This document shows, one piece after another, positions 60,201 to 61,952 of a stretch of DNA of 64,000 bases. Every line of letters starts with the position of its first letter. The stretch's first letter is position 1. The position numbers were made by a program. Source of the DNA: Escherichia coli (lineage in GTDB: Bacteria > Pseudomonadota > Gammaproteobacteria > Enterobacterales > Enterobacteriaceae); NCBI RefSeq assembly GCF_017348835.2, contig NZ_CP071375.1; one strand, 5' to 3'.

Positions 60201-61952
60201 TATCAGTCCTCATCGTTTTGCCTGGCATGTCCTTTACCAGCAATCTTCTGTATGCACTAAGCCTAGATAGAATCCACTCAGTGTACACTGAAGCCCGCTC
60301 GACGCTTTCTTGTTCGTAACTTCGATTTTAGTCAATTACCTTGTTTTCCTCGCACGATGTCTTAGCCACCGGATATCCCACAGGTGAGCCGTGTAATTGA
60401 AGGTTTTTACGTCAGATTCTTTTGGGATTGGCTTGCGTTTATTTCTGTAGCGTTTCGTTGGAAGGTATTTGCAGTTTTCGCAGATGATGTCGGTGAAACT
60501 TCGTCGCTGTCGCCTCATGCCGCCCTCCTGACGCCCTGCCCGATCGCCATCAATGCCGCTTTGGATACGGTAGTAAACATCCGTCGAGGACTGATGAACG
60601 GTCGCCAAATCAGCAGCATGGAGCCTTTACTGTTTCCCTTCTTCTCCAGCCCTGTCGATGGTTCGATAAAATTAATCCGTCCATCAGTGATAATGCGAAC
60701 TTCGTCAACACTCTCCAGAGCCTTGCTGAACCATCCGACAGACATATCCTCTGGCACAAGCATCACTACCGTCTGTCGCTGTTGTATGCACTGCTCAGCG
60801 GCTTTTTCCACCCACGGCCTGATATTGCTGTAAAGGTTGACTTAAATCGACCAGTAACAAGTAGCCTTTTGAAGAGGATCAGAAATGGGAAGAAGGCGAA
60901 GTCATGAGCGCCGGGATTTACCCCCTAACCTTTATATAAGAAACAATGGATATTACTGCTACAGGGACCCAAGGACGGGTAAAGAGTTCGGATTAGGCCG
61001 AGACAGGAGGATAGCAATCACTGAAGCAATACAGGCCAATATTGAGTTGCTATCCGGGAACAGGCGTGAGTCACTGATAGACAGAATTAAAGGCGCTGAC
61101 GCAATCACTCTTCATGCGTGGCTTGACCGATATGAAACAATCCTCAGCGAGAGGGGTATCAGGCCGAAAACTCTACTCGACTACGCCAGCAAAATCAGGG
61201 CAATCCGAAGAAAATTGCCGGACAAACCGCTCGCTGACATATCAACGAAAGAGGTGGCAGCAATGCTAAACACCTACGTAGCAGAAGGTAAAGCGGCTTC
61301 CGCAAAATTAATCAGGTCAACCCTTGTTGACGTTTTTCGTGAGGCAATAGCCGAGGGGCATGTGGCTACGAATCCGGTAACAGCAACCCGCACAGCAAAA
61401 TCAGAAGTAAGGCGTTCAAGACTGACAGCTAATGAATATGTCGCGATTTACCATGCAGCCGAACCGCTCCCAATCTGGCTGAGGCTGGCAATGGATTTGG
61501 CTGTCGTTACAGGGCAGAGAGTAGGCGATTTATGCAGAATGAAATGGTCAGACATAAACGACAACCATCTTCACATTGAGCAGGGTAAAACAGGGGCTAA
61601 GCTCGCCATTCCGCTGACGCTAACGATTGACGCGCTCAATATCTCATTGGCTGATACACTACAGAAATGCAGGGAGGCCAGCGGCAGTGAAACAATAATT
61701 GCATCAACGCATCACGAACCGCTTTCCCCGAAAACAGTATCTAAGTATTTTACAAAGGCGAGAAATGCATCTGGACTCTCATTTGATGGAGACCCGCCAA
61801 CATTCCATGAACTGCGCAGCCTGTCGGCGAGGCTATACCGGAATCAGATTGGCGATAAGTTTGCTCAACGTCTTCTCGGGCATAAATCAGATTCAATGGC
61901 GGCGCGTTACAGGGACAGTCGCGGGCGGGAGTGGGACAAAATTGAAATATCA

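Follow-up and report, generated by a model that had tools for sequence, protein, structure and literature searches.

The prophage inserted in the 3' end of yfaT in the Escherichia coli contig NZ_CP071375.1 raises the question of whether an element that carries an integrase gene (int), two att sites and the mere end of an excisionase gene (xis) is locked in the chromosome, and whether the loss of Xis is what locked it. A preliminary description of the window, which is the whole 64-kb stretch of DNA analysed here, had judged the prophage to be probably locked unless a helper phage provides Xis, and had seen the retention of the effector cargo as fitting this view. We consider it highly probable that a single deletion by illegitimate recombination within a lambdoid prophage integrated at yfaT left its scar in this region, and that the present remnant cannot excise on its own. 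The features of the locus are collected in Table 1.

Table 1. Coordinates of the features of the yfaT element in the window.
Feature	Position	Strand	Evidence and remarks
att core, int-distal junction (host yfaT 3' end / phage P arm)	48168..48178	+	exact search; K-12 empty site
P arm of attP, HK022-like	48179..48330	+	HK022 attP alignment, distal 100 nt near-identical; exact arm-type site CAGTCACTAT at 48278-48287
ninE, intact, 60 aa	60336..60518	-	Pfam NinE, E 1.7e-41; RefSeq-annotated in PE164 and F2_81; 100% identical to AU6Stx1
phage dam (N6-adenine methyltransferase), 3' 318 bp	60515..60832	-	5' 210 bp of 528 bp deleted; RefSeq: partial pseudogene
41-aa chimeric ORF, RefSeq 'excisionase'	60782..60907	+	begins at a TTG; antisense dam supplies 15 codons, followed by the Xis tail
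deletion joint, GTA	60830..60832		common to the dam and xis parents (5/6 nt, GC-GTA); window compared base by base with both AU6Stx1 dam and O111 xis
xis remnant (codons 49-72 + stop)	60833..60907	+	codon 48 = GTA joint; carries int RBS AAGAGGA; tblastn, base comparison, Pfam Exc positions 48-77/77
int, full length, 356 aa, HK022-type tyrosine integrase	60885..61955	+	HK022 Int 98%; lambda Int structure; Pfam domains
P' arm of attP	61956..62027	+	HK022 homology until 61993; 100% identical to O111 sister prophage
att core, int-proximal junction (P' arm / host yfaT)	62028..62038	+	exact search; K-12 empty site

The xis tail and its joint with dam

What remains of xis, a gene of the HK022/lambda type, is codons 48-72 and the stop codon (60830-60907). 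When the full 72-aa Xis of a sister prophage from O111 strains was compared with the window by tblastn, residues 47-72 alone were found, at 60827-60904 with 100% identity (E 1.9e-12), and this intact query revealed nothing resembling residues 1-46 anywhere in the 64-kb window. Nucleotide comparison with xis-int, a check of the kind that the preliminary description had proposed for 60600-60910, placed the beginning of the homology to HK022 and O111 at 60827-60831. Base by base, the window matches dam until ...ATTGCTGTA and then follows xis starting at GTAAAGGTTGAC..., with a microhomology of 3 bp (GTA) at the joint. The true Xis codons are V48-S72 (25 codons), while A47 has been restored by chance from antisense dam, so that the earlier estimate of a gene reduced to its last ~25 codons was correct to the codon. 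The tail keeps its place in the native order, lying just upstream of int, overlapping the int start (60885) and holding the int ribosome-binding site; the native ATG of xis and the region upstream of it are deleted.

The sequence joined to the tail had been described as unrelated, frameshifted minus-strand DNA, and this part of the description does not hold, as it consists of ninE and the 3' end of a phage dam gene. The 533 nt from 60300 to 60832 are 100% identical to phage AU6Stx1, and the two frames are unframeshifted and overlap by 4 nt in the same arrangement as in the intact phage. The complete dam gene of AU6Stx1 is 528 bp long, of which the fragment represents the 3' 60%; it matches only positions 69-167 of the 169 positions of Pfam Dam (PF05869), and the full-length domain is absent.

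The solved DNA-binding constructs of Xis comprise residues 1-55, and this winged-helix domain is incomplete here, since only residues 48-72 are encoded. The crystal structures do not include the basic tail made up of the 18 C-terminal residues of Xis (PMC4880445). It has been reported that the main role of Xis is the bending of the P arm and that, in the excisive complex, the tail of the Xis at X1 points toward the N-terminal domain of Int bound at P2 (PMC4880445). The surviving tail would not be able to bind or bend the P arm, and because it has neither the DNA-binding domain nor a credible start of its own, no functional directionality factor is encoded.

RefSeq nevertheless annotates the 41-aa ORF that ends with the xis tail as an 'excisionase' (WP_227915943.1). 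This ORF matches positions 48-77 of the 77-position Pfam Exc profile (PF07825) with 30.6 bits, above the cut-off of 23, whereas the intact O111 Xis matches positions 1-77 with 139.4 bits. Since the tail alone clears the cut-off, the origin of the label is explained, and the label is misleading. The ORF has no PHROG match and no NCBIfam match, and its only in-frame start is a TTG within antisense dam, with no ATG, Shine-Dalgarno sequence or promoter. We think it highly improbable that it is a real small protein whose Xis tail would bind the Int N-terminal domain and thereby modulate Int. The RefSeq annotation and the orientation of the X1 tail toward the P2-bound Int domain in the excisive complex (PMC4880445) speak for such a protein, but the Pfam match is confined to the tail, the start codon lies in antisense dam and has no initiation signals around it, and the ORF owes its existence to a deletion endpoint found in just 2 of 5426 genomes. 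The chimeric ORF is probably not a gene, and it serves as a caution for automated counts of prophages with 'int + xis', as a chimera at a deletion scar passes Pfam on its tail alone. A complete xis-like ORF in another frame, which according to the preliminary description would have spoken against the truncation, was looked for and not found: among all 149 stop-to-stop ORFs of at least 40 codons in 48100-62060, Pfam Exc was matched once, by the xis tail, and no other excisionase-type family was detected in this Pfam scan of the remnant, in agreement with tblastn over the whole window.

The integrase gene and the att sites

The predicted Int is identical to the HK022 Int at 348 of 355 residues (98%), with seven substitutions and no gaps, and it aligns end to end with the solved lambda Int structure 5j0n_E (E 1.9e-180). 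In this alignment, the catalytic residues R212, K235, H308, R311, H333 and Y342 are all present, and the protein contains the Pfam domains Arm-DNA-bind_1 (7.5e-29), Phage_int_SAM_1 and Phage_integrase (4.2e-41). At the nucleotide level, int is 96% identical to that of HK022 and ~74% identical to those of 434 and HK97, which are the most lambda-like integrases listed, and lambda proper was rejected as its parent. The earlier description of int as full length and lambda-like thus stands as regards its length, with the correction that the gene is of the HK022 type rather than of lambda proper.

A TTGC-N6-TTGC motif, TTGCGTGTAATTGC, sits just upstream of xis in O111 and HK022, and from established lambda biology we take it to be the cII-activated int promoter pI. 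By consensus scan, this motif is absent near and upstream of int in the window, and a consensus scan for sigma-70-like sites likewise gave none on the plus strand between 59636 and int. No plus-strand terminator is predicted between the end of a 590-aa gene (59832) and int, and int may therefore be transcribed by read-through. It keeps its ribosome-binding site and its full reading frame, but its two native promoters, pI and pL, appear to be gone.

The yfaT gene is already known as a phage insertion site (PMC3603311), and the element occupies 48168-62038 (13.9 kb) in its 3' end. An exact search of the window for the 11-bp att core CTTCCATGTCA gave two copies and no more, one at 48168 and the other at 62028, and none of 100 shuffled sequences contained two or more. 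The empty yfaT site of K-12 reads GGGTGTCCTTCCATGTCATAAGTTGTTG, that is, the two host flanks joined at the core, which confirms both junctions and bears out the claim that the att cores are intact. When the arm-type consensus was searched with two mismatches, the counts were at chance level, and for this reason the exact site in the P arm alone was used. On the host side of the int-proximal junction, the minus-strand ORF at 61953-62576 has the last 27 residues of YfaT swapped for 28 phage-encoded ones (208 aa, compared with 207 aa for the native protein), and it converges on int, the two genes sharing their last 6 nt. Elsewhere in the host sequence, the yfaS alpha-2-macroglobulin gene (~43555-48069) contains an internal stop, and the PE164 annotation shows, at ~35060-37010, an atoS without its C-terminus next to an atoC-like regulator without its N-terminus, which indicates a host deletion that fused the two genes.

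The 13.9-kb remnant and its relatives

The genes and gene fragments between the att sites are nleA, a piece of a transposase gene, one nleG gene, pieces of tail-fibre genes, part of lom joined to a lysozyme stub, a holin gene, Q, a phosphatase gene, ninG, an HNH gene, the 590-aa ORF, ninE, what is left of dam and of xis, and int. No repressor or immunity gene and no N, O or P was annotated or detected between the att sites (Pfam ORF scan and annotation), and terminase, head and tail genes are absent from the same interval except for the tail-fibre fragments. Of what characterizes an inducible prophage, the flanking att sites with identical cores are present; immunity, replication and virion genes are absent.

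Mapped onto the intact phage Stx1a_NIID112183 (54.6 kb), the two sides of the dam-xis joint fall at 1443 and 16246, 14.8 kb apart, and the gene order of intact AU6Stx1 is P-ren-...-ninB-dam-ninE. In the single-deletion reading preferred here, dam, a minus-strand gene of the nin region, would have been joined to codon 48 of xis at the 3-bp microhomology. The ~15 kb lost in this event include the first 47 codons of xis, pI just upstream of it and the genes from exo to xis together with the recombination genes. The same deletion also took N, the immunity region, pL, O, P, ren and ninB, as well as the first 70 codons of dam. The deletion could have joined two different prophages rather than two parts of one, and the sequence fits both.

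The dam-xis junction is real and inherited. A search of 5426 complete E. coli genomes found this exact junction in just two pig isolates, PE164 from China (NZ_CP114128.1) and F2_81 from Australia (NZ_CP043542.1). Their chromosomes are nearly identical to the window, and the three differ from one another by separate IS insertions, among them an additional IS3 copy in PE164. There is next to no chance that the joint arose as an assembly or sequencing artefact, since it is shared by two independent complete genomes and by the window, a third sequence that is not identical to them.

In a second deletion, by which all morphogenesis genes were lost, the 5' part of the lysozyme gene became joined to the 3' part of lom. 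Its scar was located at ~52420-52990 with coordinates mapped from the PE164 annotation; here a 117-bp 5' stub of the lysozyme gene adjoins a lom gene without its 5' end, with a loss of Rz, cos and the terminase, head and tail genes, and the endpoints in the O111 sister are different. The loss of the early region and this loss of all virion genes together leave a non-inducible remnant bounded by intact att sites, and its cargo consists of nleA, one nleG gene and the 590-aa gene, for which no Pfam or NCBIfam family was found. The last of these is an intact ORF (58060-59832, plus strand) that lies between ninE and HNH/ninG on the strand opposite to theirs, as a moron would. It matches phrog_9230 end to end and is intact in the Stx1 phage AU6Stx1. 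About 300 bp upstream of it, at 57660-57755, there are ~14 AAATAG hexanucleotide repeats, which give rise to spurious FLFLFL/ISISIS ORFs; this region shows 13 differences from O111 in a 250-nt bin, and its copy number may vary.

A sister remnant is present at yfaT in ~47 other complete genomes, mostly of O111 and including O111:H- 11128. When we compared the two elements, they were found to occupy the same site, to be 100% identical in int and the P' arm and 99.3% identical in the Q-ninG-HNH-ninE block, to carry the same cargo (nleA, nleG and the 590-aa ORF) and to be of similar size (~14 kb). However, they differ in several respects. First, in O111:H- 11128 the 72-aa xis is complete and a 114-aa ORF is preserved upstream of it, with no more than the final 52 bp of dam on the other side of the fusion, and its deletion extends over 2337..16507 in the coordinates of Stx1a_NIID112183, compared with 1443..16246 here. 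Second, the O111 sister keeps lysozyme, Rz and rha and has lost lom and the tail fibre genes, with other endpoints in the late region. Third, its 590-aa ORF is split in two. Since each lineage retains sequence that is missing from the other and their late deletions are different, the two elements were reduced independently.

Between the two lineages, int and the P' arm are 100% identical, whereas a 2% difference is seen in the host DNA next to them. Past the att core, yfaT is identical to that of O111 11128 for 256 bp (62039-62295), and the next 1.7 kb are ~2.3% different. This pattern hints that, beyond insertion by Int alone, the prophage end may have been swapped between the lineages by homologous recombination with a crossover in yfaT. 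The int-distal end (48000-49750), which takes in the P arm, the sequence upstream of nleA and the first half of this gene, diverges by 10-20% from the O111 sister, while the rest of the remnant is >99% identical, indicating that the element is a mosaic and that its nleA is a different allele.

Excision and comparison with known prophages

The element encodes no functional xis, possesses an intact int and two intact att sites, and has lost all functions for induction, replication and packaging; we infer that it would be unable to excise autonomously. The earlier proposal that it is locked by the loss of Xis is sound in that xis is non-functional while int and att are intact, but several functions were lost, not one. 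We regard it as unlikely that the loss of Xis was a specific lesion which immobilized an otherwise competent prophage, so that its cargo was retained through selection or as a direct consequence. The intact int and att sites beside a non-functional xis agree with such a lesion, as does the persistence of the junction in strains of two continents while IS elements accumulate. Against it, the xis truncation is one endpoint of a ~14.8-kb deletion and is therefore not specific, and the repressor, pL, pI, replication, lysis and morphogenesis functions are lost as well. Moreover, the O111 sister, whose xis is complete, is no less fixed, as it occupies this site with the same cargo in ~47 complete genomes; being equally reduced, it also weakens the proposed tie between Xis loss and the retention of effectors.

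The third objection comes from strain Sakai of O157, in which the prophages Sp4 and Sp14 have an intact Int and an Xis without the DNA-binding motif, yet their circular excised forms were detected (PMC2669165). Asadulghani et al. (2009, PMC2669165) suggested that prophages with a defective Xis may be excised by Int on its own, at a low level. If this is the case, the statement that the yfaT element cannot excise on its own is too strong, and since Sp4 and Sp14 excise without a full Xis, 'locked' does not follow from sequence alone. Like the yfaT element, both are effector-carrying lambdoid prophages with an apparently intact Int and an Xis without its DNA-binding part, but they are far less reduced, having kept replication genes and most of their genome, and their excision and circularisation are known from experiments (PMC2669165), whereas the case of the yfaT element is argued from its sequence.

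Excision could also be brought about by a co-resident prophage of the lambda or HK022 type that would give Xis and probably Int too. When a probe for the missing 5' part of xis was joined in turn to each of two single-copy anchors, PE164 and F2_81 each gave exactly one additional match with either anchor, and these counts suggest that each strain probably has one further lambda-type xis elsewhere. It seems quite unlikely, though, that the element is a helper-dependent cassette, in which Int, the att arms and the cores have been kept through occasional mobilization by an induced lambda/HK022-type prophage supplying Xis and perhaps Int. The second lambda-type xis suggested by the probe would fit this idea, as would the HK022-like arm sites retained in the P arm and an int that is 100% identical across two lineages with 2% flanking divergence, meaning that its spread was recent. 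However, the late deletion spans from the lysozyme gene to lom, and with cos, the terminase genes and the replication origin absent, an excised circle would be lost rather than spread. In addition, the 256 bp of identical host DNA past att fit homologous recombination rather than transfer by Int. The parallel shrinkage from ~50 to ~14 kb in the pig strains and in O111, with the same int, att sites and cargo kept, could mean that a cassette has been maintained, but we see only a slim chance that the int-att-effector unit is upheld as a helper-dependent excisable cassette rather than being debris.

Returning to the reading of a deletion scar in a non-excising remnant, its implication is that nleA and nleG at yfaT are effectively chromosomal in the pig strains and would move by homologous recombination, not by phage induction. 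The locus is notable only mildly, for the parallel and independent reduction of one prophage in two lineages and for the misleading 'excisionase' label. Its practical value is small, and it provides a clean example of two lineages independently shrinking one effector-carrying prophage.

Among intact phages, HK022 (NC_002166 / X51962) resembles the element in its Int (98% at the amino acid level), in an Xis tail that is identical but for G58S, in a xis that overlaps int in the same order, in the P and P' arms and in the half-sites flanking the core (CAACTT ... AAGG). The differences are that xis here is without codons 1-47 and without the upstream TTGC-N6-TTGC motif, and that the central core, as read at 48168-48185 and 62020-62045, is CCATGTCA here and ATTCACCT in HK022. 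The half-sites are conserved and the two Int proteins are 7 residues apart, while the chromosomal target is yfaT here and the HK022 attB in the phage. The change of target looks like a natural case of retargeting in which the overlap sequence played the main part.

Decay by internal deletion is of an ordinary kind that is already documented for prophages. DLP12, Rac and Qin of K-12 are cryptic lambdoid prophage remnants. In grounded or cryptic lambdoid remnants of this kind, large internal deletions leave att-bounded elements that keep int and cargo (reviewed in PMC6379469), and the yfaT element differs from them only in its endpoints and its cargo.
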